Origin: Candidatus Thorarchaeota archaeon
Lineage (GTDB): Archaea; Asgardarchaeota; Heimdallarchaeia; Hodarchaeales; Hodarchaeaceae
Assembly (NCBI GenBank): GCA_048882505.1
Contig: JBHLRO010000005.1
Coordinates: forward strand, 90,001-122,000
DNA: 32,000 nt
Reading direction: 5' to 3'
Each line of letters opens with the position of its first letter. The stretch's first letter is position 1. A program made the translations under genes and the position numbers. The notes below the pieces were generated by a model. That model saw only the letters and a list, made by a program, of their open reading frames with translations, was not told the DNA's origin and searched no databases. Below, piece by piece: positions 8,447-29,103 of the stretch.

Positions 8447-8470
8447 TTCTGCAAATTTCACATCTGGTTG

Positions 8471-8749
8471 ATGAGTCTCATGACCCCGAAACCCTTAGAA
8501 AAAACAAAGACACTGATCCTTTTATTATTAAAGGACATGGTTGAAGCGACAACCGCGGAGATCGTAAACGAGGCATCCATTATATCTGCAGATTGCAAAG
8601 ATCGTGTTCCAGCAGCCATTGCAGGACTTAATCGTGCGGGCATGCTCCTTCGGTCAATTTCTCGTGAAAAAAAAGCCATAGTTTGGAGTCTGTCAGCGCG
8701 TGTTGACCTTTCATCCTTGAATAGTCAAGATATCAACAATTTTGAGTAA
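8471..8749 (+). CDS. Small hypothetical protein, possible winged-helix DNA-binding domain
   Basis: IL.LL....EATTAEIV...L...GML......K...WSL pattern, 24 bp downstream of sufS. Start uncertain (8468, 8471 or 8480). Confidence 0.5.
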   Translation: MSLMTPKPLEKTKTLILLLLKDMVEATTAEIVNEASIISADCKDRVPAAIAGLNRAGMLLRSISREKKAIVWSLSARVDLSSLNSQDINNFE

Positions 8750-8999
8750 TCGGCTTTAAACCGATAGCTTTTCGAAATCTCGATTTGAGAATTCCCTTCA
8801 CACAACGGCAGCCAAGAGGGTGTGTCATAATCGCTCCTGTAGGGCATTGTAGGCTACATGCACCACATTCAATGCATTCCTCCTCGTCAGTTAGAGTAGC
8901 GGGTTCATTTGGTGGTATTGCAATGATTTGATGAGGACACACGCCCACACAAAAACCACACGAATTGCATTTCTCGCCAAAAATAGTCGCAGCCATCAT
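8733..8999 (-). CDS. hgcB: HgcB-like 2x[4Fe-4S] ferredoxin
   Basis: CNSCGFCVGVCPH and CIECGACSLQCP, the latter matching the C(M/I)ECGA HgcB signature. Tail cysteines GCRC plus a terminal Cys. Lies 21 bp downstream of the hgcA-like gene. Confidence 0.75.
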   Translation of the reverse strand: MMAATIFGEKCNSCGFCVGVCPHQIIAIPPNEPATLTDEEECIECGACSLQCPTGAIMTHPLGCRCVKGILKSRFRKAIGLKPITQNC

Positions 9000-9020
9000 G
9001 GTGCATTAGATGGTATCATT

Positions 9021-10682
9021 TTAAAATAGTTGATGAATCGGAGGAAAAAAAAGAGCGAGTACGCAAACAACACTGAACACGATTGTTGTAGGAATCAAAA
9101 GTATCGCCAAATCGGTTTCTACGTTCAAATGATTTGAATGTGGAGTCTGACCCGCGAAGTCTAACACTACAAAAAAGGAAATCAAAAACACCAGGGAGCA
9201 CCAGAATATGATTGTGGGGATATTTTTATTGGATAGCCAAAGCAGAATCAGGAGACAGCTTGCCGAGGAAAATATTAGTCCCTTATAGAAGAACGACTTA
9301 ACGCGACGTAGGATTGGATATATAATCGGGAAAACAAACGAGGGAAGGATCGAAAAAATTGCCAGCTGAATCGCAACGTCCCACCAGAAATGGAAAGGAT
9401 CGACTCCTAATGACCAGAAACCCCAGGCCCCTAAGAGTAAAGGCAAAAAGATGGTTACTAGAATAAAAAAAGTATGCTGTATCGCCATTAGGATTCGAAA
9501 ACGCATATTGAATTTGACCATGGCCTGATCTTTTGTTTTTTTGTAATTATTTTGTTTATATTCTGGAAAGTTACCAATATAAACCGGCCCAAATGTCGGA
9601 CGCCATCCATAACGGCGTATAGCATGCTGGTTAACACCCGTTGCCGACAATTGCGGTAATATAAGACGCTTATGGCCTAAAAATGTTGAATTTACAAATA
9701 GTCGGAGAGCGTCTATAACTTGACGATGCGTAAAATGCTTTCCTCCCGCAGCGCACCATACATTTATTCCTGAAGAATCTATTATCAGGATCCAACAATC
9801 GATATAAGATTTAGCTAATGACCTATTTACGCTCCACGCTGTCCAGTAATAGTTCCCCGTTACTAATAAGGGCGAATCTTTTGTCGGAGTACCGACATAA
9901 TAAAGGCCTGGCGCAACCTTACTTCTTGTATAGATTCCGTTGACCATACAATACAATGTACGGGCTAATCCAAATTTTCCCAAAGTTCTTGAAAGAGGTA
10001 CCCTCTTGGTAGGACTATATTCTTCCACAGGAACGTCCGAAGTGCAACTAAAGAGCTGGATTGACCCCAGGGATAATAGGCGCATGGGAGAGAAGTATTT
10101 TTCCAATAATCTGTAAAAGTCCCTGATAGGAAAAGTCTGGGAGATATTTCGGAGGACCGATATCTGCGAATTGATCAAATGTTTGAACCAATAGAAGTAT
10201 TTTCTAACGCCAGACCTAGGTAGTGTGTCAGCTGCAATGTACAGGGTACCGTTCCACATTAAAAGTTCTCTCACTTGTCTTAAAAACAGTTGTTGTCTAA
10301 GAGGAGTTAATTCTGATAAGACAAAGGTTGAAACAACATAATCAAAAGGACCCAATGAGATTAAATCTTCAAAAACCGAATAATCAGTAAAATCCCCCTG
10401 TAGGAAAGATATTTTTTCGTTCAATCCCTCTTCATAAGATTTTTCAGTCGCATATTTGATCATTTCCCCGGAAATATCGATTGCGATCACTTCTAGCCCT
10501 TTCTGTGCAAGCTGACAAGATAGCTGCCCTGTACCGCAGCCAATTTCGAGAACTTTTCCTCTACTCCCGATTTGCTCCAAAATTCGTCTATAGATCTCTT
10601 TAGATTCCGGAAAAAGACGGTAGAACTCTTGATCATATGTGGTCGGATCTTTCTCTAGTATTTTCATATATAAGAGACTCAT
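9021..10682 (-). CDS. hgcA: Class I SAM-dependent methyltransferase fused to an HgcA-like corrinoid-binding domain and C-terminal transmembrane domain
   Basis: N-terminus: VLEIGCGTG, IAIDIS, QGD, FDYVVSTF. Middle: PGLY.VG.P...SPLLVTGNY, GINVWCAAGGK, LILPQLSATGV, FGPV. C-terminus: several TM helices ending DFAGQTP. The symbol denotes homology, not proven Hg methylation. Confidence 0.85.
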   Translation of the reverse strand: MSLLYMKILEKDPTTYDQEFYRLFPESKEIYRRILEQIGSRGKVLEIGCGTGQLSCQLAQKGLEVIAIDISGEMIKYATEKSYEEGLNEKISFLQGDFTDYSVFEDLISLGPFDYVVSTFVLSELTPLRQQLFLRQVRELLMWNGTLYIAADTLPRSGVRKYFYWFKHLINSQISVLRNISQTFPIRDFYRLLEKYFSPMRLLSLGSIQLFSCTSDVPVEEYSPTKRVPLSRTLGKFGLARTLYCMVNGIYTRSKVAPGLYYVGTPTKDSPLLVTGNYYWTAWSVNRSLAKSYIDCWILIIDSSGINVWCAAGGKHFTHRQVIDALRLFVNSTFLGHKRLILPQLSATGVNQHAIRRYGWRPTFGPVYIGNFPEYKQNNYKKTKDQAMVKFNMRFRILMAIQHTFFILVTIFLPLLLGAWGFWSLGVDPFHFWWDVAIQLAIFSILPSFVFPIIYPILRRVKSFFYKGLIFSSASCLLILLWLSNKNIPTIIFWCSLVFLISFFVVLDFAGQTPHSNHLNVETDLAILLIPTTIVFSVVCVLALFFPPIHQLF

Positions 10683-11825
10683 TTATTTTGACCATCCCAG
10701 TAGATGTCTATTACCAATATGTACATTTTTGAGATGCTTCTTTGCCGCCAAATAGCATTTTTTAACTTGATCAGGTGATGTAAAAGGTAAATCGCTTAGG
10801 AACGAGGAAGGATGAAAGGCTAGAAGGCTATAGGGAATCGTTTCATCTAATTCGGCCAAAAAGCCTGCGATAAGTTCAACTTCTATGGCATCAATGTACC
10901 CAGGAATTAGTAACGTTGTTGCAGCAAGCACCGGGATTACTTTTCGCTGATGATAGAACTTGTGGAAGCATTTTTCGAAATTTTTGAAAGACTGTTCATT
11001 AGAGACTCCGCTGAGAACTCGTGATAGAATCGGATTAAAGTACTTTAAATCAAATTTGACATTTCCTCCCGTATCCAGAGCTAAAGCTACCGCATTACCT
11101 ACCAGTTTTGGGTGCCCAGCGCCATTCCATTCCCAACAGACACGAAGGATACGATCAGAATATTCTTTAACCGCTTTTTTGCTCGCACGGAGAGCCCAGG
11201 GCAGCTGCGGCTCAGGTGATCCCCCAAACCAACATATACAAGAAACTAGCGGATCGTTGGCCTTTGAAAGGAATTTTTCTAGCGTATAGCGCTCGCCAAT
11301 GTTAATATTTCTATGTTGCGCGTTTTGACAACCATAACAAAAGAAATTACAACCATAAAGGAAGCAAGCAAGATTATAATGGCTAAATTCTGGGCCTGGA
11401 GCACAGGCAAACCTGGGATAACCTTTGCCTGTGCCACCTGGACAAAAATATGTTGAGCAACAATTAGTTGGAAGAGGGTCCAAATATGTGTGCAAAATCG
11501 CTTCTATGTTACCTGAAATCGATCTAATCCTTCCTCCACGATTTTCCCAAAGCCCACAATATCCTGATTCCCCTGGAGCTATATAGCAGGTATTCGAACA
11601 GACTTTACACTGAACTCCCTCTGAATCATGCGGGAGATTTGTACGTAATCCCCATTTTGAACGAGAATACGAATGCACGTCCTCGATGTACTGTAAAACC
11701 TTTGTAGGATTATTACGGATACATTCAGAACAAATACCTATATGTTGGGAAAATATGGGAGGACTTTCTTGACAGATACGACATCTTCGTGTTTTTTTCG
11801 ATTGAGGGCCACGAATGAAGGGCAT
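10683..11825 (-). CDS. Radical SAM protein (PFL-activating / AmmeMemoRadiSam-like) with Cys-rich N-terminus
   Basis: CxxxCxxC motif GCNFFCYGCQN, FGGSPEPQ, KFDLK, plus CRIC, CSEC and CKVCSNTC...G..GYCG clusters. Confidence 0.88.
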   Translation of the reverse strand: MPFIRGPQSKKTRRCRICQESPPIFSQHIGICSECIRNNPTKVLQYIEDVHSYSRSKWGLRTNLPHDSEGVQCKVCSNTCYIAPGESGYCGLWENRGGRIRSISGNIEAILHTYLDPLPTNCCSTYFCPGGTGKGYPRFACAPGPEFSHYNLACFLYGCNFFCYGCQNAQHRNINIGERYTLEKFLSKANDPLVSCICWFGGSPEPQLPWALRASKKAVKEYSDRILRVCWEWNGAGHPKLVGNAVALALDTGGNVKFDLKYFNPILSRVLSGVSNEQSFKNFEKCFHKFYHQRKVIPVLAATTLLIPGYIDAIEVELIAGFLAELDETIPYSLLAFHPSSFLSDLPFTSPDQVKKCYLAAKKHLKNVHIGNRHLLGWSK

Positions 11826-11930: not shown

Positions 11931-12476
11931 TTACCTCTCAGTATTAACCATTAGGCGAGCCAGGTCTGAAAAAGCCGCTTCCACATTCTCTCCAGTTAGC
12001 GCGGAAGTATCATAATGGTGAGGAATTGTTTCTAGCTCTCGGAAGGCGTCAACATGTTCCAAGGAAACGGTTCGCAATTCAAATAGATCAGATTTGTTTC
12101 CTATCAAGACAAATGGAATTCGACCAGTTACGGCCTCGATATCCCTAATCCAGACGTGTAAAGACTCCAAGGTTTCTTGAATTGTGATATCATATACAAG
12201 TAATGCGCCACGGGCATTTGAAAAGAACTTATTCCGAATAGATCGAAATAGGGTCTGTCCAGCGATATCCCAAATCTGTAATGAGATATCCTGTTGGTCT
12301 TGTACCAATCTTTTTGAAGTAATTTCGACTCCAATGGTTGCCTTATAATCGGATTTGAACTGACCATGGACAAAGCGATTGATCAATGTTGTTTTTCCAA
12401 CAGCACCTTCGCCAGCCAAAATGATCTTGAACTTATATTGGCCTTCTTCTTCTAGTTCATTTACTTCAATACTCAT
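11931..12476 (-). CDS. Rab/Ras-like small GTPase (eukaryotic-signature type)
   Basis: G1 GEGAVGKT, G2 TIG, G3 WDIAGQ, G4 NKSD, G5 TSAL. No C-terminal prenylation cysteines. Confidence 0.93.
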   Translation of the reverse strand: MSIEVNELEEEGQYKFKIILAGEGAVGKTTLINRFVHGQFKSDYKATIGVEITSKRLVQDQQDISLQIWDIAGQTLFRSIRNKFFSNARGALLVYDITIQETLESLHVWIRDIEAVTGRIPFVLIGNKSDLFELRTVSLEHVDAFRELETIPHHYDTSALTGENVEAAFSDLARLMVNTER

Positions 12477-15131: not shown

Positions 15132-18100
15132 ATGGTGGATTTTTCTAGATGGTCGAAGAACGGTCAAAAATTCATTCAGTTCCTTTTCATTTTGCTTGTC
15201 GCAATTCCTATTGCCAATCCACTGTTATTCCAACCTGAGGATAAATTTTTTGTTGAAAAGCATTTTAATACAACTATCCTCCGTAATCCAGAGGGAGGCT
15301 TAATTCCGCAGACAGAAGAGATGCGCAGCGTTGCAAAATCTTCTAGAATATCCAAAGAACTTGGTAATGATCCTACTGATTCAGCAGCATCTGATAGAGG
15401 TTTGCTTTCACATAGCATCGGTACACGATTGGGAATTGGAACGGGGTCTCACTCTGTGATCGACTCGTATACTAGGGTCAATCTAAGCGAGTTAAATACC
15501 ATGAATTCAATCAAAGACGGGTATACTAGCCAACGCAATGCGACTTTTTCGATCGATCCCTTGGTCGCCTCTTCCCAGGAGGCTGTTTTTTTTCAGATCC
15601 AGGAAGTGATAGCACAAGAAGATTGGCGGGCGATGGAAAACAACATTTCAAGTGCAGATTCGCTCAGTTCGACATCCTTTGTTGAGGCAGGCCAAAAGTT
15701 CGAAATAAAAGAAGATTATGCTAATATCACAGAAGTCAGTGTTTTTCTCAAGTATGTTGATGCCATTGGCCTTGATGGAAATATTCCCCACGGTAACGTA
15801 TCTATCCATGATGATAACTCTGGGGAACCAGGTAAACAGTTAGGTACAATGACGCTTGAAGAGGGATTTGGTTCGCTGGACATCGGACCAGCAATCCCCG
15901 CGGCCTGGATTAGCTACAGGTTTTCCGTCCCAATCAACCTAACAAAAGGATCATATTGGCTAGTGCTCAATGACACTGGAATTCCAGCGGAAGGATCCTG
16001 GGAATGGTACGCGCAGGAGGATACATCCCTTGGGAATGCAGGTGATATTGTTTTAAAAACAAGTCATGTAGATACGTGGTCTCTTAACCCCTTTCCGTAT
16101 GATGGTCATGACATTATTTCAGCAGTTAGGATTCTTCCCACTGATGGAAACTGGAACAATCTAACCTATACAAGTCCATCAGACATAAAAATGAACTATA
16201 CTACAACGGAAGGGGGATATACATTGAGTTCATTCTCTTTTGAAGCCAATAATACCCTTTCCCATGAATTTAACACAACAACCTCCGTTTCATTTTCCCT
16301 TTTGAATACAGTAAATTATGCATATTCTGGGAATCCCATCAATGGAACCTCCACATATCGAGCTGAAAATGGTTCACTGGTATTATGGAATATAACGTTC
16401 TCCACGATTCAAATTAGTACTTCTGATGCAATCAAAAATCGTACGATAACAATCGATGGCATACCTGTGGATTGGAATGGTTCAAGAATATATTGGAATA
16501 ATTCTGACGTGCCAGAATATCCCGATTTAATCAATGATTTTAACGTGACTTGGGATGGAGACCCAGCTCATAAATACACCCATGGTAATACAACTATGGT
16601 TGTTAATGTGAGCACTTTAACTGACAACGTCACCTGGCATGTGTGGTTCGAGGCTCCCAATTATCTTCTCAATTTCACTCTTGGCCGTGGCACTACCCCG
16701 TTCATTATCCCCTATGAAGCCAATGCTACTGATCTCTTGAACTTGACCTTCTACACCCGATATACGGGGAACCTATCTTACTGGATCGATTTTCCCAACG
16801 GGTCTTCCATTGCACGTGTGGACATTAACGGTATAAACACAGAATTTTGGGAGGAATGGGACATTATTCAAACATTAGATCCAACCATTAATGTAAACGG
16901 AACTTATTGGCTTCAGGCATTTTGGAGCAAAGACAATTCAACCAAGGTAGGCACATTTGTTCGGTATTTGGACCTTTTTGTGAATACATCATTATCGCCC
17001 CTAAACGACACTGAAATTTTGATAGGCCAGAGTTTAAATTTGGCCGTTAATTATAGATCCACCCACAACGGTACGGACATCAAAGGAGCTTTAATTTGGG
17101 CTAATGCAAGCTGGCCCACAGGTGCCAGACAAAACGTGACTATGAATCAGCTAGGGGATGGATCCTATAATGCATCTTTTTCCACCACGGGGCAACCTGC
17201 AGGTTATATAGGAACGGTAACCGTAAACACTCGAGTTGGTTGGTTTGTAAACCGGACGCAGATCTTTTTTGTCAAATTTGTTGAAAATTCTTCACTCTTT
17301 GTTGATAGGCAAAATCTCGTATTAGAATGGCGTGAAAACGCCACCCTGCGTATAGATTATCTCAACTCGACAAACGGAGTCATTTTCGACGGAATTGTGA
17401 AAATTGCTGGAAATGTGGTTTCATTTGATACCGGGGCATTCTTCTATAGCTTAAATACAACGGATTTTGGTGGGATTGGATCCTACATGGATATCCCAAT
17501 TGTTGCAACTCATAGCCAGTACCTCTCTCGTCAAATTAACATATCCTTGACCATTACTTCTGGTGAGACCAGTATTGAAGGGAAGTATAAAGGTCAACCC
17601 CAAACCAATAATACCCTGATATCGGAAGATATCATTTTCGCTGCAAACGCGCAGGATACGTTTATGATCAATTTTCGTTATCATTCTACCTTTCCTATTG
17701 ACCTAACTCTAAATACCACGCCCGTAGTTAATTATTCTGCAATACAAGGTGTTTCTCTTAAATCGGAACTTAACTTAACTTGGACGATCATCATTAATCC
17801 TGATAGTATAGGTACTTACTCGATTAACGTCTCCTTCTCGCTAGCGAATTATAATAGGAGTCTATTTAACTTTAAGATTAACGTAATCAAGGCACCGACT
17901 GAGGTGGTTAGTAATATCGCATTTCCTAGAATTGTCTATTTTACTGATAACTTTGTTTTCTATTTACAATTTCAGAGTACAGCTTACAATGAACCAATTC
18001 CACTCGTAACGCCTACGATTGACGATGAATCCAAGATAACGTTCCTAAACAATGATACGGAAAAATATTGGTTCAGGTTCAATACCACTCAATTATCATT

Positions 18101-19775
18101 GGGGTTGCATTCCCTTCAGATTTCTTTTTCAAGCCCTAACTACGAATCAAGCGAGATTGGGGTAGAATTCGAGGTTATTGAGATGTCTACCCTAGAATTG
18201 TCTTCCGATAGTGTTCATTTGCCCGATAACGGAACAGTCCTCATAGAAGATTTGTTTCCGATATCGATAGACAATTACTTAACGTATCAAGGTGAAAATA
18301 TCGGTCATCTGGATGAAGTCAATATTTGGCTGAACGGTACCCCCGTTTCAAAAGCAGATTTTGAGGAGGTTCACTTGCTTCAGACTCCTTTTTCTTTAGC
18401 TTTTTCCACTAGTGGCTGGCAGCATGGTTTCTATAATCTCACTTTTCAACTTGTTACCTGGGGTTACCAAACCCGGTACTTTACCTCTAATATTACACTA
18501 CGGGGTCGGCCCATCGAAATGGAGCTGGTAATCTTACCAGGGACCACGATTTCGCAGGGAGAAAATCTCACCTTTATTATCGAATTAAGTTATCATTTGG
18601 CTCCGCAAGGAGGCGGATCAAGTGTGCAACTTGCTCCACTTGGAGCAATAAATGTAACCTTCTACATCATGATCGAAAATGAAAATGGTTCCCAGTCTAT
18701 TTTTGAATGTCTTAGGCAAACCAACAGTCAGGGTGAAGCTTCCTATATAATTCCAGGTTCCCAGACATTAGCCGCCTATCGTTTTTCAAAGATCACCATT
18801 CAAACCGGAATGGGATTATCTAGTTTGCCATATTCCTACACGATGTCTCCTGAAAAGCTTGAATCGTATAATTTCCTTCCAGCACAAGTTGATATCACGG
18901 GAGTCATCATTTTTGTTTTAATCATCGTCGTTTTAGTGCTAGTGTCCGCATTTGCAGCTGGAGGGGCTGCACGTACTGTTCATCGTAAACGTGAAAAGCG
19001 GGCTCAAGTGGTCCAGAAACATGACGTTGCGATTGAACGGAGTTTTGAAGATATTAAATCAATTAAGGCAATTGTCGGACGTGTCGAGTCAGGTTTACCA
19101 TTTTATTACGAAAATACCACCGCGGATATCCGTACAGATCCACACGCCTTGTCGGGTATGTCAGCCGCGATTTCCTCATTTATGCAGGATGTATCAGGGG
19201 GAATGAGTTCCCGTTTTGAAGATGGAGAGATGGCGGAGCAGATCGAGATTATGAGTCGCCACGGATTGCACCTACTCATGTGGAACGGGGAGTTTATCAC
19301 AATGATGATTATATCCGATATTGAACTCCCTGATTATTTCAGAAGCAGGTTGGCAGGGTTAGGCAACGAACTGGAATTCACATTTAAAGAAGAACTAAAG
19401 GAATTCTATTCTACGGAACAGATCCCATCATCAAGCGTAAGGAAAATTGTTCATAGGTACATTCCCTTACATTACTTTTCTGCGTTCATTCTAAATGAAG
19501 GGGTTATAACTCTTAGAGGCATCAAATTTTCCAAAGAAGAAAAGAAGATGATTTCGTTAATAAAAGGGATTCTCTTTGAGAAAAACGGGATGCAATTCCT
19601 GTTTTCCGAACAGATTATTTCTCATCTTTCAAACCATTTCAAGAGAAGTAAATGCATCAACTTTTTAGATAAGGCTATTGAGCAGAATTTATTGATCGAA
19701 TTTGATCCTGAAGACATATTACATGCTAAAGAAGGGCAGTCCGAAGAATCCATCCCACTAGGCCAGAATCTCTAG
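15132..19775 (+). CDS. Large glycosylated single-pass surface protein with cytoplasmic longin/roadblock-like tail
   Basis: N-terminal hydrophobic segment, ~1200-aa beta-rich region with dozens of N-x-S/T sequons, TM helix (about 18894-18971) followed by RKREKR, then an SGLP.Y...LSG...AISSF..DV tail. Confidence 0.8.
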   Translation: MVDFSRWSKNGQKFIQFLFILLVAIPIANPLLFQPEDKFFVEKHFNTTILRNPEGGLIPQTEEMRSVAKSSRISKELGNDPTDSAASDRGLLSHSIGTRLGIGTGSHSVIDSYTRVNLSELNTMNSIKDGYTSQRNATFSIDPLVASSQEAVFFQIQEVIAQEDWRAMENNISSADSLSSTSFVEAGQKFEIKEDYANITEVSVFLKYVDAIGLDGNIPHGNVSIHDDNSGEPGKQLGTMTLEEGFGSLDIGPAIPAAWISYRFSVPINLTKGSYWLVLNDTGIPAEGSWEWYAQEDTSLGNAGDIVLKTSHVDTWSLNPFPYDGHDIISAVRILPTDGNWNNLTYTSPSDIKMNYTTTEGGYTLSSFSFEANNTLSHEFNTTTSVSFSLLNTVNYAYSGNPINGTSTYRAENGSLVLWNITFSTIQISTSDAIKNRTITIDGIPVDWNGSRIYWNNSDVPEYPDLINDFNVTWDGDPAHKYTHGNTTMVVNVSTLTDNVTWHVWFEAPNYLLNFTLGRGTTPFIIPYEANATDLLNLTFYTRYTGNLSYWIDFPNGSSIARVDINGINTEFWEEWDIIQTLDPTINVNGTYWLQAFWSKDNSTKVGTFVRYLDLFVNTSLSPLNDTEILIGQSLNLAVNYRSTHNGTDIKGALIWANASWPTGARQNVTMNQLGDGSYNASFSTTGQPAGYIGTVTVNTRVGWFVNRTQIFFVKFVENSSLFVDRQNLVLEWRENATLRIDYLNSTNGVIFDGIVKIAGNVVSFDTGAFFYSLNTTDFGGIGSYMDIPIVATHSQYLSRQINISLTITSGETSIEGKYKGQPQTNNTLISEDIIFAANAQDTFMINFRYHSTFPIDLTLNTTPVVNYSAIQGVSLKSELNLTWTIIINPDSIGTYSINVSFSLANYNRSLFNFKINVIKAPTEVVSNIAFPRIVYFTDNFVFYLQFQSTAYNEPIPLVTPTIDDESKITFLNNDTEKYWFRFNTTQLSLGLHSLQISFSSPNYESSEIGVEFEVIEMSTLELSSDSVHLPDNGTVLIEDLFPISIDNYLTYQGENIGHLDEVNIWLNGTPVSKADFEEVHLLQTPFSLAFSTSGWQHGFYNLTFQLVTWGYQTRYFTSNITLRGRPIEMELVILPGTTISQGENLTFIIELSYHLAPQGGGSSVQLAPLGAINVTFYIMIENENGSQSIFECLRQTNSQGEASYIIPGSQTLAAYRFSKITIQTGMGLSSLPYSYTMSPEKLESYNFLPAQVDITGVIIFVLIIVVLVLVSAFAAGGAARTVHRKREKRAQVVQKHDVAIERSFEDIKSIKAIVGRVESGLPFYYENTTADIRTDPHALSGMSAAISSFMQDVSGGMSSRFEDGEMAEQIEIMSRHGLHLLMWNGEFITMMIISDIELPDYFRSRLAGLGNELEFTFKEELKEFYSTEQIPSSSVRKIVHRYIPLHYFSAFILNEGVITLRGIKFSKEEKKMISLIKGILFEKNGMQFLFSEQIISHLSNHFKRSKCINFLDKAIEQNLLIEFDPEDILHAKEGQSEESIPLGQNL

Positions 19776-25935: not shown

Positions 25936-28900
25936 TCAAATTGGAATTCTGATCCATTCTTTGGCCGGATCTATAAAGTATTTACTTCCTTTTATCATTA
26001 CTTGTACCTTCCTACCACCACTACTAGTTATTTTGAGACCTATTTCATGCATTGAGATGTCTAGATAATAGGTTATTCCCCTTAACGTGATCCTGAATTT
26101 AATTCTTCTCCAGTTAATCGGTAAAGAAGGGTTTATTTCCAAAATCTGAGATCTTAGATTGACTCCAGCATAAAAGGTAATTGCTCCTAAAACGGTTCCC
26201 CCCATTACCCCCGTATGAATTCCCTCGCCCGTTGTTCCCTGTTGAATATCAGTATAATCACTCTTCAAGGCATCTTCGTACATTCTATAACTCTCCGCAA
26301 TATTACCTACTAGTTTGAACATAAGGCTGTGGACGATTCTGCTCAGGCTCGATCCATGTGAGGTTCTGACACTGTAATAATCGAAGTTTCTCTCCAAATA
26401 GTTTTCTGGAATTGAAAAACCGAGATCTTTTACTATTTCCGCCACCTCACTTGGAAGAAGGGTGTAGAATGTCATAAGGACGTCAGCTTGCTTGGAAACC
26501 TTGTAATCGTTGGGCGATCTGTTTTCTGCCCTTAAAATTCTATCTAATCGCTGAATATTCCTGTAATTTTTCCGGTAATATTCCCAATCCATTTCTTGCA
26601 AACTGAAATAACCATCGAATTGAGCTAATATTCCTTCTTTTGATATTATTAAATTTAATCTCTTTGTTATATCTTTCCATCTCTGTAGGTCTTTCTGCGA
26701 TATTCTTAGTTTGCCTAGAAGATTTTCCTTAAAAATGCCGTTAATTCTCTCTAAAATTTCAAACGCTTTCTGAAATGCCCATATAACCATGATATTTGTG
26801 TATGAGTTGTCTTTTAATCCTTCTTCGCCCGATTGGGGAAATTTTTCATGAAATTCATCTGGGCCCATCACTTTTCGTATTGAATATCTACCAGAGTCGT
26901 TGAGTGTGGCCTTACTCGACCAAAATTTGCAAATTTCTAATAACATCTCTGCTCCGAAGTTTTTTAGAAAATCCGCATCATCAGTAAGCCAAAAATAAAA
27001 CCATATATTGTGGGCTACCGCCAAAGAAACATGTCTCTGGAGCCGGCTATAATCAGCTCCCCATTCTTGGTTTATTGGATTTAAATGCATTGAAGGGGTT
27101 TCTTCATCACCTGTCGAGCCGCTTTGCCATGGAAACATGGCCCCATCGTAACCAAACGCCCTAGCGTATGATCGAGCTCTGTCCAATCTGTTATAACGAT
27201 ATAACAGCGCCATTCTAGTAATTTGCGGGAAATGTAGAGTATAAAAGGGCAGAATGAAAACCGAGTCCCAAAATATATGCCCGCGATACGCTTCCCCATG
27301 GAGTCCTCTAGCCGGTATCCCCAAATCAGACTCGGTGTTGGAGGGTGAAGCTGTAACCATCAGGTGATACAAATGCAATCTTAATAATTTTTGAATCAAA
27401 CGATCTCCCTCAATACATATATCAATACTACTCCAAAGCTCCTTCCATTTCTTCTTGCTTCCTCTTTCAATAACGTCGTAATTTCCAAATTTCCTTGCTG
27501 ATTCAATAGCCAACTTAAGGAGGGTTTGACTACTCAATGAAATTATGTCCCGGGATGTGTAAACAGCCACTGTTTTTTCAACTCTTATTTGATCCCCTTT
27601 TTTTGCATCCACAACGAATAAGACTGTAATTTCCCCCTCCTGGGTTACCAAGGTTTTGAATTCTGGAAAAATTTCCCTTCCATTCTCAAAAATCCTTAAT
27701 TTCATTGCTTCAGCAATTAAAATCTTTGATTGATTGGTCTTTACTAGTATGTACCATATTTCTCCTTCTCTCCCTTGATCCATAGGTGTTAGATGCTTTG
27801 AGTTCAGCTGCCTATATCGTTTAACACCGTCATTAACTATGGTTCCATCCAAGGATACCTTTATCTGGATCGTTGATGCATAATTTTGGGGCCTTAATTC
27901 ATACTTTAAACCTAATGCATGGCAGTTCTCCATACTTGCAAAACGATGTGAAATAATTTTGGTCTCTCTCCCAAACTCATCTTTCACCCTCATTCGCTTG
28001 GATAACACACCCGTTTTTAGATTGATCTCCCTTCCCAGTTCTGTTAGCTCATATTTGTCAAAAGAGAACCACGGGGCATCAGCTATTCTAAAAGAAACTA
28101 AAAGCCAATTTGGGCAGTTTACCATATCTTCATTAACAACCGTCCTTCCCGCCACCGTACTTTTAAGCCTGTTATATACTCCCGCGATATACGTGCCAGG
28201 ATAGCTGATGGAATTACTTTTGACTTCTTCCATGGCTCCTCTGGTACCAAGATATCCATTTCCAACGGTAAAGAGTGATTCCCATCTACTTTCCTCTCCT
28301 TGAGTATATCCAAAATTTCTAAGGAACCAACTATCCTCTTTCAGACTTTTGTCAAACCACTCCTCAATTGTATCAACCGTCACCTCTCCAAGGTCTGACA
28401 CAACAATATCTGCCCCGTTTTTTCGTAACTCATGAAAATTCCGATCTCTCGCGATTCCAATAACCATTCCGAACCCCCCATTCCTTCCAGCTTGAACGCC
28501 TGAAACTGCATCTTCTATTATAACTGAACGATCATAATATACATTGAGACTCCTACATGCGGCTTGAAAAATATCAGGTTCTGGCTTTCCTTTCAAATCA
28601 AGATGCTCTGATAGAATCCCGTCTACTCTCGCTTCAAACATATCGGATAGCTTGGCGGCTTGTAAAATCTGTTTACAGTTTTTACTGGAGGAAGCGACCC
28701 CTATTCTGATATTTCTTCTCTTTAGGTCTTTTATCAGACCTATTGTTGAATAATAAACCTCTATCTTTCCGCTCGAAATCAAAACGTTGAAAATTTGATT
28801 CTTTCTGTTACCCAAACCACATATCGTTACAGTATCAGGAGGATCTGAAGGCTTGCCGTATGGTAGAGTGATTTTCCTAGATTCCAGAAAGGACTTCACT

Positions 28901-29103
28901 CCCTGGTATCTGGGCTTTCCGTCAATATACTTCAGATAATCTCTACTATGAGAGAATGGTTCAAATCCTTTGGTATCCTCCCTTCCGAATTTATTTAAGA
29001 ATTCATCAAACATTTGTTTCCAAGCTTGACTATGTACATTGGCAGTTTTTGTAATCACACCATCCAAATCGAATATGACCGCATCAAAGCTCAACCTATT
29101 CAT
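25936..29103 (-). CDS. Beta-phosphoglucomutase-type HAD domain fused to GH65 glycoside phosphorylase/hydrolase
   Basis: HAD motifs FDLDGVIT, ASSSKN, GKPEPDIF and IEDA. GH65 motifs GNGYLG.RG, GLHGEAYRGHIFWD, MGPDEFHE, KQAD and HGSSLS. Confidence 0.92.
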   Translation of the reverse strand: MNRLSFDAVIFDLDGVITKTANVHSQAWKQMFDEFLNKFGREDTKGFEPFSHSRDYLKYIDGKPRYQGVKSFLESRKITLPYGKPSDPPDTVTICGLGNRKNQIFNVLISSGKIEVYYSTIGLIKDLKRRNIRIGVASSSKNCKQILQAAKLSDMFEARVDGILSEHLDLKGKPEPDIFQAACRSLNVYYDRSVIIEDAVSGVQAGRNGGFGMVIGIARDRNFHELRKNGADIVVSDLGEVTVDTIEEWFDKSLKEDSWFLRNFGYTQGEESRWESLFTVGNGYLGTRGAMEEVKSNSISYPGTYIAGVYNRLKSTVAGRTVVNEDMVNCPNWLLVSFRIADAPWFSFDKYELTELGREINLKTGVLSKRMRVKDEFGRETKIISHRFASMENCHALGLKYELRPQNYASTIQIKVSLDGTIVNDGVKRYRQLNSKHLTPMDQGREGEIWYILVKTNQSKILIAEAMKLRIFENGREIFPEFKTLVTQEGEITVLFVVDAKKGDQIRVEKTVAVYTSRDIISLSSQTLLKLAIESARKFGNYDVIERGSKKKWKELWSSIDICIEGDRLIQKLLRLHLYHLMVTASPSNTESDLGIPARGLHGEAYRGHIFWDSVFILPFYTLHFPQITRMALLYRYNRLDRARSYARAFGYDGAMFPWQSGSTGDEETPSMHLNPINQEWGADYSRLQRHVSLAVAHNIWFYFWLTDDADFLKNFGAEMLLEICKFWSSKATLNDSGRYSIRKVMGPDEFHEKFPQSGEEGLKDNSYTNIMVIWAFQKAFEILERINGIFKENLLGKLRISQKDLQRWKDITKRLNLIISKEGILAQFDGYFSLQEMDWEYYRKNYRNIQRLDRILRAENRSPNDYKVSKQADVLMTFYTLLPSEVAEIVKDLGFSIPENYLERNFDYYSVRTSHGSSLSRIVHSLMFKLVGNIAESYRMYEDALKSDYTDIQQGTTGEGIHTGVMGGTVLGAITFYAGVNLRSQILEINPSLPINWRRIKFRITLRGITYYLDISMHEIGLKITSSGGRKVQVMIKGSKYFIDPAKEWIRIPI

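Follow-up and report, generated by a model that had tools for sequence, protein, structure and literature searches.

The canonical pair HgcA/HgcB (NCBIfam NF040863/NF040864; Parks 2013) combines a membrane protein with an NVWC cap helix, a cobalt-ligating cysteine and five transmembrane helices with an adjacently encoded ferredoxin, which carries the motif CIECGAC, a cysteine about 12 residues after its second cluster motif and a C-terminal cysteine. Since 2013 it has been asked what the HgcA superfamily does natively and where its methyl group comes from, and only in 2024 was S-adenosylmethionine (SAM) shown to be the donor to HgcAB, methylating a corrinoid with Co-thiolate ligation, which provides a precedent for a SAM-to-cobalt step (PMC11588087). 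A second described system consists of the corrinoid protein-associated methyltransferase CpaM (NF043040) and the HgcAB-like protein NF043039 (the "fused HgcAB" of Podar 2015, Gilmour 2018 and Lin 2023), in which CpaM is a protein of its own and the HgcA-like part carries the ferredoxin as a fusion. All three modules also occur in a stretch of 32,000 nucleotides from a Candidatus Thorarchaeota archaeon (contig JBHLRO010000005.1, positions 90,001 to 122,000; referred to in its entirety as the window), where conversely the CpaM-type domain is joined to the HgcA-like part and a gene of its own encodes the ferredoxin. The gene pair comprises the following features, all on the minus strand:

9021..10682, minus strand: fusion gene (553 aa) of a CpaM-type SAM methyltransferase, an HgcA-like corrinoid-binding domain and a five-helix membrane domain
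10038..10682, minus strand: methyltransferase domain, aa 1-215, best NCBIfam family CpaM NF043040
10527-10553, minus strand: SAM motif I VLEIGCGTG, aa 44-52; the motif II acid is D69
9528..9923, minus strand: HgcA-like corrinoid-binding domain, aa 254-385, PF03599 match
9738-9770, minus strand: cap helix GINVWCAAGGK, aa 305-315, with Cys310
9024..9527, minus strand: membrane domain, aa 386-553, five long helices according to AlphaFold2 secondary structure; the match to the HgcA hidden Markov model (HMM) reaches aa 544
8733..8999, minus strand: HgcB-like ferredoxin (88 aa) with two [4Fe-4S] motifs and CIECGAC, starting 21 nt after the fusion stop
8802-8810, minus strand: ferredoxin CxC pair, C64 and C66
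8736-8738, minus strand: ferredoxin C-terminal Cys88, the last residue

The two genes probably encode a membrane-anchored three-module corrinoid methyltransferase, in which a methyl group would be relayed from SAM via cobalt to a thiophilic acceptor; we assign this reading a probability of roughly 0.6. It proceeds from the domain identities, the intact motifs, the conserved gene pair, the recurrent independent fusions and the cysteine pattern of the ferredoxin, all of which are observed, while the chemical steps and the nature of the acceptor are proposed on that basis.

The preliminary description of the locus, made from the DNA letters, had placed an intact methyltransferase domain, an HgcA-type corrinoid domain and an HgcA-like transmembrane tail in one open reading frame (ORF) of 553 residues, and each of these parts is indeed present. 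The frame is uninterrupted by internal stops. Pfam profiles place class I methyltransferase domains (E 5e-17) at aa 41-150 and CdhD/PF03599 (E 8e-11) at aa 254-349. The latter match is limited to profile positions 266-361, and the TIM-barrel domain of CdhD/CdhE is lacking. Three NCBIfam models match below their cut-offs, namely CpaM at aa 2-195 (142.4 bits, cut-off 180; model positions 1-193 of 216), HgcAB-like NF043039 at aa 255-517 (195.8 bits, cut-off 285) and HgcA NF040863 at aa 254-544 (158.5 bits, cut-off 275). The HgcAB-like match spans model positions 15-280 only, the ferredoxin being a separate gene in the window. All motifs quoted earlier are found, with PGLY at aa 258-261, VTGNY at 274-278, GINVWCAAG at 305-313 and LILPQL at 340-345. 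Within an alignment of 54 homologues G48, G50, G52 and D69 of the methyltransferase domain as well as N307, W309 and C310 of the cap helix are invariant.

The AlphaFold2 model of the fusion protein, for which the 54 homologues served as input, has a pLDDT (predicted local distance difference test) of 89.1 and a pTM (predicted template modelling score) of 0.85. It depicts a Rossmann-type methyltransferase, another alpha/beta domain and, at the C-terminus, five long helices (residues 393-424, 430-458, 464-482, 488-510 and 518-545). The top match of this model in a Foldseek search of the PDB is the HgcAB model 9a0b_A (E 4e-12), followed by small-molecule C-methyltransferases. In a PDB search with the sequence, methyltransferases and CFeSP, a corrinoid iron-sulfur protein (2h9a, 4c1n, 4djd; E 1e-4 to 3e-3), are retrieved, solved HgcA not being among the matches. 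The corrinoid-binding Rossmann-like domain is thus homologous to that of CdhE/AcsC of CO dehydrogenase/acetyl-CoA synthase, as reflected in the same PDB entries and in AlphaFold DB matches. Unlike the window protein, however, CdhE has neither a cobalt-ligating cysteine nor a membrane or SAM domain and receives its methyl group from a pterin.

With respect to its N-terminal part, the fusion protein is a class I SAM methyltransferase with an HgcA-like partner, and CpaM is clearly its best family, the next-best NCBIfam methyltransferase family scoring 52 bits compared to 142 bits. Among stand-alone proteins, the closest relatives have about 220 residues, and those with a specific name at NCBI are called CpaM. 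Such a stand-alone CpaM (225 aa) is encoded at locus L072 immediately upstream of a ferredoxin-fused HgcAB-like gene, and the window domain aligns with it over aa 1-193 including the N-terminal signature YxMKxLExxPxxYD. The likeness of the N-terminus to corrinoid protein-associated methyltransferases, which had been proposed initially, is thereby confirmed.

In a tree of the methyltransferase domains, the Asgard-type fused domains form a single clade of their own, apart from CpaM (support 99), which comprises the window type, a type with the cap-helix motif NVWCxARG and the type of a second fusion on contig 39 of the same genome. The domains of a Chloroflexi-type fusion and of triple fusions are instead placed among stand-alone CpaMs. 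Therefore, at least two independent fusions are indicated, followed by duplication in an Asgard-dominated lineage. The repeated fusion of the same two partners, with their order varying, speaks strongly for their acting as one joint machine, and a SAM methyltransferase fused at least twice to a corrinoid protein constitutes independent genomic evidence for SAM-to-cobalt transfer as the core chemistry of the family.

The triple fusions unite CpaM, the HgcA-like part and a two-cluster ferredoxin in 580-600 residues. They occur at L070:3725-5515 (minus strand) in the Asgard genome G052 and in "Ranarchaeia" metagenome-assembled genomes (MAGs), further examples being P0141, P0166 and P0169, and they pass both the CpaM and the HgcAB-like cut-offs.

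A missed stop codon or a chimeric join between the two parts, either of which would have undermined the fusion, is excluded because a second copy exists in the same genome and full-length ORFs recur in independent assemblies. The second copy, diverged and located on contig 39, has 548 residues and is followed by a 111-aa ferredoxin; its CpaM domain reaches 221.8 bits and thus lies above the cut-off which the window domain misses. A whole-protein profile finds a match at E ≤ 1e-30 in 210 of 400 Asgard species genomes. Among the 150 matches listed, most span model positions 1-554 in uninterrupted frames of 550-600 residues, so that well over 100 independent full-length ORFs are available, several of them on single-contig genomes. 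In the genus of the window itself a fusion match is found in 17 of 21 genomes. All but one of the best 120 database matches contain both the methyltransferase and PF03599 (the exception, of 481 aa, has PF03599 only). They originate from MAGs of Heimdall-, Hod-, Loki- (Promethearchaeota), Thor-, Odin- and Hermodarchaeota as well as one of Chloroflexi, and their public name is just "methyltransferase domain-containing protein". The nearest homologue, with 77% identity, belongs to a Heimdallarchaeota MAG. Together with the prevalence of Asgard MAGs among the named matches and a Ras-family GTPase two genes off, this agrees with the Asgard origin that had been surmised from the sequence.

Since the fusion is common in Asgard archaea, and since the components CpaM, HgcA-like protein and ferredoxin as well as their partnership are already catalogued by NCBIfam (NF043040, NF043039), its initial presentation as a novelty was overstated. 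In the literature, Asgard sequences have been put into a "fused HgcAB" subtree, their N-terminal domain going unmentioned (PMC10083202). In that alignment (Lin 2023) the initial 327 columns, which aligned poorly, had been trimmed (PMC10083202), and this may have hidden the methyltransferase. Our literature search returned no paper containing the term "corrinoid protein-associated methyltransferase" or describing a methyltransferase-HgcA fusion. What is new here is the frequency of the fusion in Asgard genomes, the evidence for independent fusions, the HgcB-type cysteine signature of the Asgard-type ferredoxins and a possible sister place to canonical HgcA.

In order to place the HgcA-like part, it was searched on its own, yielding matches to 910 clusters (50% identity) at E ≤ 1e-3. 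The best 150 of these, sorted by architecture and cap-helix motif, fall into three kinds:

canonical kind: no extra domain, about 330-370 aa, cap helix NVWCAAGK
HgcAB-like kind: C-terminal ferredoxin motifs, 350-400 aa, cap helix NVWCAA[GTCA]GGH
methyltransferase-fused kind: about 540-590 aa, cap helix NVWCAARG.. or NVWCAAGG[G/K]H

Four proteins of the canonical kind pass the HgcA cut-off (325-406 bits) and three ferredoxin-fused ones pass the HgcAB-like cut-off, and these served as NCBIfam anchors. An IQ-TREE phylogeny of 86 sequences, with the corrinoid domains of eight Asgard CdhE proteins as its root, separates the HgcA superfamily including the window protein from CdhE at 100/100; the domain thus groups with the superfamily and not with CdhE. 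The canonical HgcA clade (99/100) contains no methyltransferase fusion, in line with the absence of a methyltransferase domain from all 70 canonical proteins (0/70). Outside of it, the window protein belongs to an Asgard clade of 11 members, all of them fused (100/96). The branching order of the six deep HgcA-like lineages is not resolved, and a grouping of all non-canonical forms seen with FastTree (support 80-96) is not reproduced in IQ-TREE. A constrained tree uniting the window clade with canonical HgcA is not rejected (p-AU, the p value of the approximately unbiased test, 0.37). Therefore, the window protein is not a canonical HgcA, and its position nearer to HgcA or to the HgcAB-like group is left undecided by these trees. 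Of the proposed HgcA identity, membership of the superfamily thus stands, while assignment to HgcA proper does not. The fusion is rather a domain-permuted form of the catalogued CpaM plus HgcAB-like system.

Some Asgard CdhE-like proteins of about 590 residues (loci L049, L024, L031, L034, L027 and similar) harbor two tandem corrinoid-binding domains, e.g. at aa 344-468 and 472-579, compared to one in the usual 470-aa form.

The pair could be conceived as a true mercury methylase, i.e. an HgcAB equivalent which makes methylmercury and in which the fused domain takes over SAM binding. The cap-helix motif N(V/I)WC(A/S), by which Lin et al. called HgcA (PMC10083202), is present as NVWCA at aa 307-311, the model possesses five transmembrane helices, the ferredoxin has cysteines at the Cys73 position and at the C-terminus, and the sister place to the canonical clade survives the topology test mentioned above. 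Nevertheless, we regard this function as quite improbable. The HgcA score of 158 bits is far from the cut-off of 275, the stricter form NVWCAAGK shared by nearly all of the 70 canonical-clade proteins is replaced by NVWCAAGGK, the protein lies outside the canonical clade, and carriage of the fusion by about half of the Asgard genomes searched points to a housekeeping substrate rather than to mercury. Motif- or HMM-based hgcA surveys can catch these abundant Asgard genes, which should not be counted as mercury methylators untested.

The ferredoxin gene downstream of the fusion, with the spacing of 21 bp and the CIECGAC signature described initially, has HgcB NF040864 as its best NCBIfam match (58.4 bits, cut-off 99). 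Its two CxxCxxCxxxCP motifs extend over C11-C21 and C42-C52, with C64 and C66 at +12 and +14 after the second motif. Together with C88 this corresponds to the cysteine pattern by which HgcB is recognised, namely two cluster motifs, a cysteine about 12 residues after the second one and a C-terminal cysteine (PMC7305189). Alignment with canonical HgcB from loci L074 and L071 equates C66 with the cysteine of "GVGC" (Cys73 position) and C88 with the C-terminal cysteine. In HgcB of strain ND132, mercury methylation depends strictly on Cys73, and full activity requires Cys94, Cys95 or both (PMC7305189).

Gene order and cysteines are conserved alike. A same-strand ferredoxin gene is found -6 to +58 nt downstream in 23 of 25 sampled fusion loci, the remaining two being a triple fusion and the Chloroflexi locus, where a 62-aa ferredoxin gene lies about 50 nt downstream. 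In all 23 separate partners a CxC stands 12 to 15 residues past the second cluster motif, and at least one C-terminal cysteine is present; in 22 partner ferredoxins C64 and C66 are invariant and C88 is nearly so. By comparison, a comparable CxC (at +14 to +19) occurs in only 3 of 31 ferredoxin-fused proteins, most of which contain no cysteine after the motif, and the ferredoxin of the Chloroflexi locus has none there either. The HgcB-type pattern hence separates the Asgard-type ferredoxins from the tails of fused HgcAB, which mostly lack the Cys73-position and C-terminal cysteines. A physical association of the partners is weakly supported by complex prediction for fusion residues 235-553 and the ferredoxin, with a score of 0.55 versus 0.00 for the best control. 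In the calibration, 58 of 80 solved complexes attained this mark, as did 2 of 110 mismatched pairs; at scores of 0.60 or less, however, only 7 of the 80 did so, together with both mismatches. At least 57% of the contacts were common to the prediction runs, with a partner pLDDT of at least 68.

The HgcB of locus L071 (4096-4371, plus strand), beside a canonical HgcA attributed to Alkaliphilus serpentinus, contains an in-frame TGA at the Cys73 position (GVG-TGA). The gene call ends at 74 aa, whereas with TGA read as selenocysteine the frame runs to the C-terminal cysteine. It matches a "GVGU" HgcB selenoprotein listed in PMC13188914.

A further indication as to the acceptor comes from the sister paralogs of the NVWCxARG type. 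In 9 of 15 of their loci an ArsR/SmtB regulator and/or an ACR3-like arsenite efflux gene is located nearby, the ACR3-like gene scoring 273 bits compared to a cut-off of 283; at locus L051 it shares the strand of the fusion and terminates about 55 nt upstream of it. Arsenic genes have also been reported beside canonical hgcAB (PMC7438021). The cysteine pattern and this arsenic context favour a thiophilic metal or metalloid as the putative acceptor.

Two small ORFs of L051 (6108-6428 and 6457-6819, both plus strand; 106 and 120 aa), which have no Pfam or NCBIfam match, are found again immediately downstream of the ferredoxin gene in five loci of Loki type with arsenic context.

In the proposed relay, the HgcB-like ferredoxin would reduce the corrinoid bound under the cap helix to Co(I). 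The fused CpaM domain would then bind SAM and methylate Co(I) to methyl-Co(III), with Cys310 as the lower ligand, and finally the methyl group would be passed at the membrane face to an acceptor presented by the ferredoxin cysteines. Because the ferredoxin keeps C64/C66 and the C-terminal C88, this acceptor would most likely be a thiol-bound soft metal or metalloid, with arsenite and Hg(II) as the leading candidates. As regards the cofactor, eight B12-binding domain matches in the window's own genome indicate the use of cobamides.

Instead of serving turnover, the CpaM domain might be a repair module only, restoring the methyl group on cobalt after its oxidation to Co(II) and renewed reduction, while another molecule donates the methyl group in each catalytic cycle. 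The combination of ferredoxin and SAM domain follows the logic of reductive reactivation in MetH, whose activation domain binds SAM and re-methylates oxidised, then re-reduced cobalt. There, as in the window pair, a SAM module and a low-potential electron carrier (flavodoxin) act on protein-bound cobalamin, but the folds and families are unrelated and the SAM route of MetH is for repair only, so that the likeness is one of logic and not of homology. Furthermore, the CFeSP relatives obtain their methyl group from a pterin-bound donor (PMC7305189). We consider a pure repair role improbable, given that the 25 loci show no conserved gene beside the pair for a pterin methyltransferase or another methyl donor, that PF03599 matches in the own genome are confined to the two fusions with no CdhD or CdhE, and that SAM is the turnover donor of canonical HgcAB (PMC11588087). 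Moreover, every fused form pairs the HgcA-like protein with CpaM, and so do the triple fusions and the sole ferredoxin-fused locus read (L072).

Net methyl transfer would be dispensed with altogether if the corrinoid were employed in reductive chemistry such as the dehalogenation of halomethanes. CCl4 dechlorination by heterologously expressed HgcAB is reported in a 2026 preprint (doi 10.64898/2026.04.26.720869). This assumption leaves unexplained the intact SAM methyltransferase, fused at least twice independently and paired elsewhere, and is very unlikely.

Several points weigh against the SAM-to-cobalt relay itself. It is read from genes and a predicted structure. Canonical HgcAB uses SAM without a methyltransferase domain, so that CpaM could have a role other than cobalt loading. 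P. furiosus and M. methylutens, which possess the ferredoxin-fused HgcAB gene pair, made no methylmercury (PMC5893877); both tested members of fused HgcAB were negative for mercury methylation (PMC5893877, PMC10083202), and the CpaM-partnered kind of fused HgcAB is the best NCBIfam match of the window protein. The methyltransferase domain and the ferredoxin remain below the CpaM and HgcB cut-offs, respectively. Metal or arsenic genes are found in none of the 7 sampled loci of the window's own subgroup (NVWCAAGG[G/K]H), two of which (L019 and L060) may be one contig, and the single ACR3 of the own genome is encoded on another contig than the window fusion. Finally, CobS was not found in the genome, which is 94.5% complete; therefore, the cofactor would be salvaged or finished by another route, none such having been searched for.

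A bolder extension, which appears unlikely at present, is that the Asgard-type system is the closest living relative of canonical HgcAB and a SAM-driven corrinoid methylase acting on a soft metal or metalloid, for instance arsenite or Hg(II). In that case the fusion would have kept the form of the ancestor, canonical HgcAB would have given up its separate SAM domain later, and the native role of the HgcA superfamily would come to light. In any case, the Asgard fusion, the HgcB-like cysteines and the paralog group at arsenic loci lead to a testable hypothesis of metalloid methylation by a compact two-gene system.

The genes surrounding the pair in the window, i.e. a class V aminotransferase, a small ORF, a radical SAM gene, a Ras-like GTPase, a metallophosphoesterase and a TauE-family exporter, point to no pathway, and in the loci of the window's subgroup no neighbour other than the ferredoxin is conserved. 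The two genes directly flanking the pair are:

10683..11825, minus strand: radical SAM gene (380 aa), its stop abutting the ATG of the fusion; weak Radical_SAM and Fer4_12 matches
8468..8749, plus strand: convergent ORF (93 aa), overlapping the 3' end of the ferredoxin gene by 17 nt; no Pfam match even at E = 1 and no regulator domain

The tight arrangement of the radical SAM gene, repeated on contigs L017 and L018, the carriers of the homologue with 77% identity, invites the idea that it forms a split cobalamin-dependent radical SAM methylase together with the fusion. Orthologues exist in 17 of 22 same-genus genomes, yet they adjoin the fusion only in the own genome, in G188 and on contigs L017 and L018. 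In G190, G136, G115, G102 and G180 orthologue and fusion reside on different contigs, and at the fusion loci of other lineages the gene is absent. As the synteny is not conserved, this candidate was rejected and is deemed extremely unlikely.

An ORF of similar size to the 93-aa ORF occupies the same convergent position on L017 and L018, a likeness of size and place and not of alignment. The 181-aa small GTPase at 11931-12476 (minus strand) belongs to the Ras/Roc family (E 8e-46), which fits the Asgard origin. At 15132-19775 (plus strand) the window contains an ORF of 1547 residues without a Pfam match at E ≤ 1e-5; at the edge of L017 a gene of 1538 residues, cut by the end of the locus, is of about the same length. 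Lastly, a protein of 1055 residues encoded at 25936-29103 (minus strand) combines an N-terminal HAD-type hydrolase domain with a full glycoside hydrolase family 65 phosphorylase.

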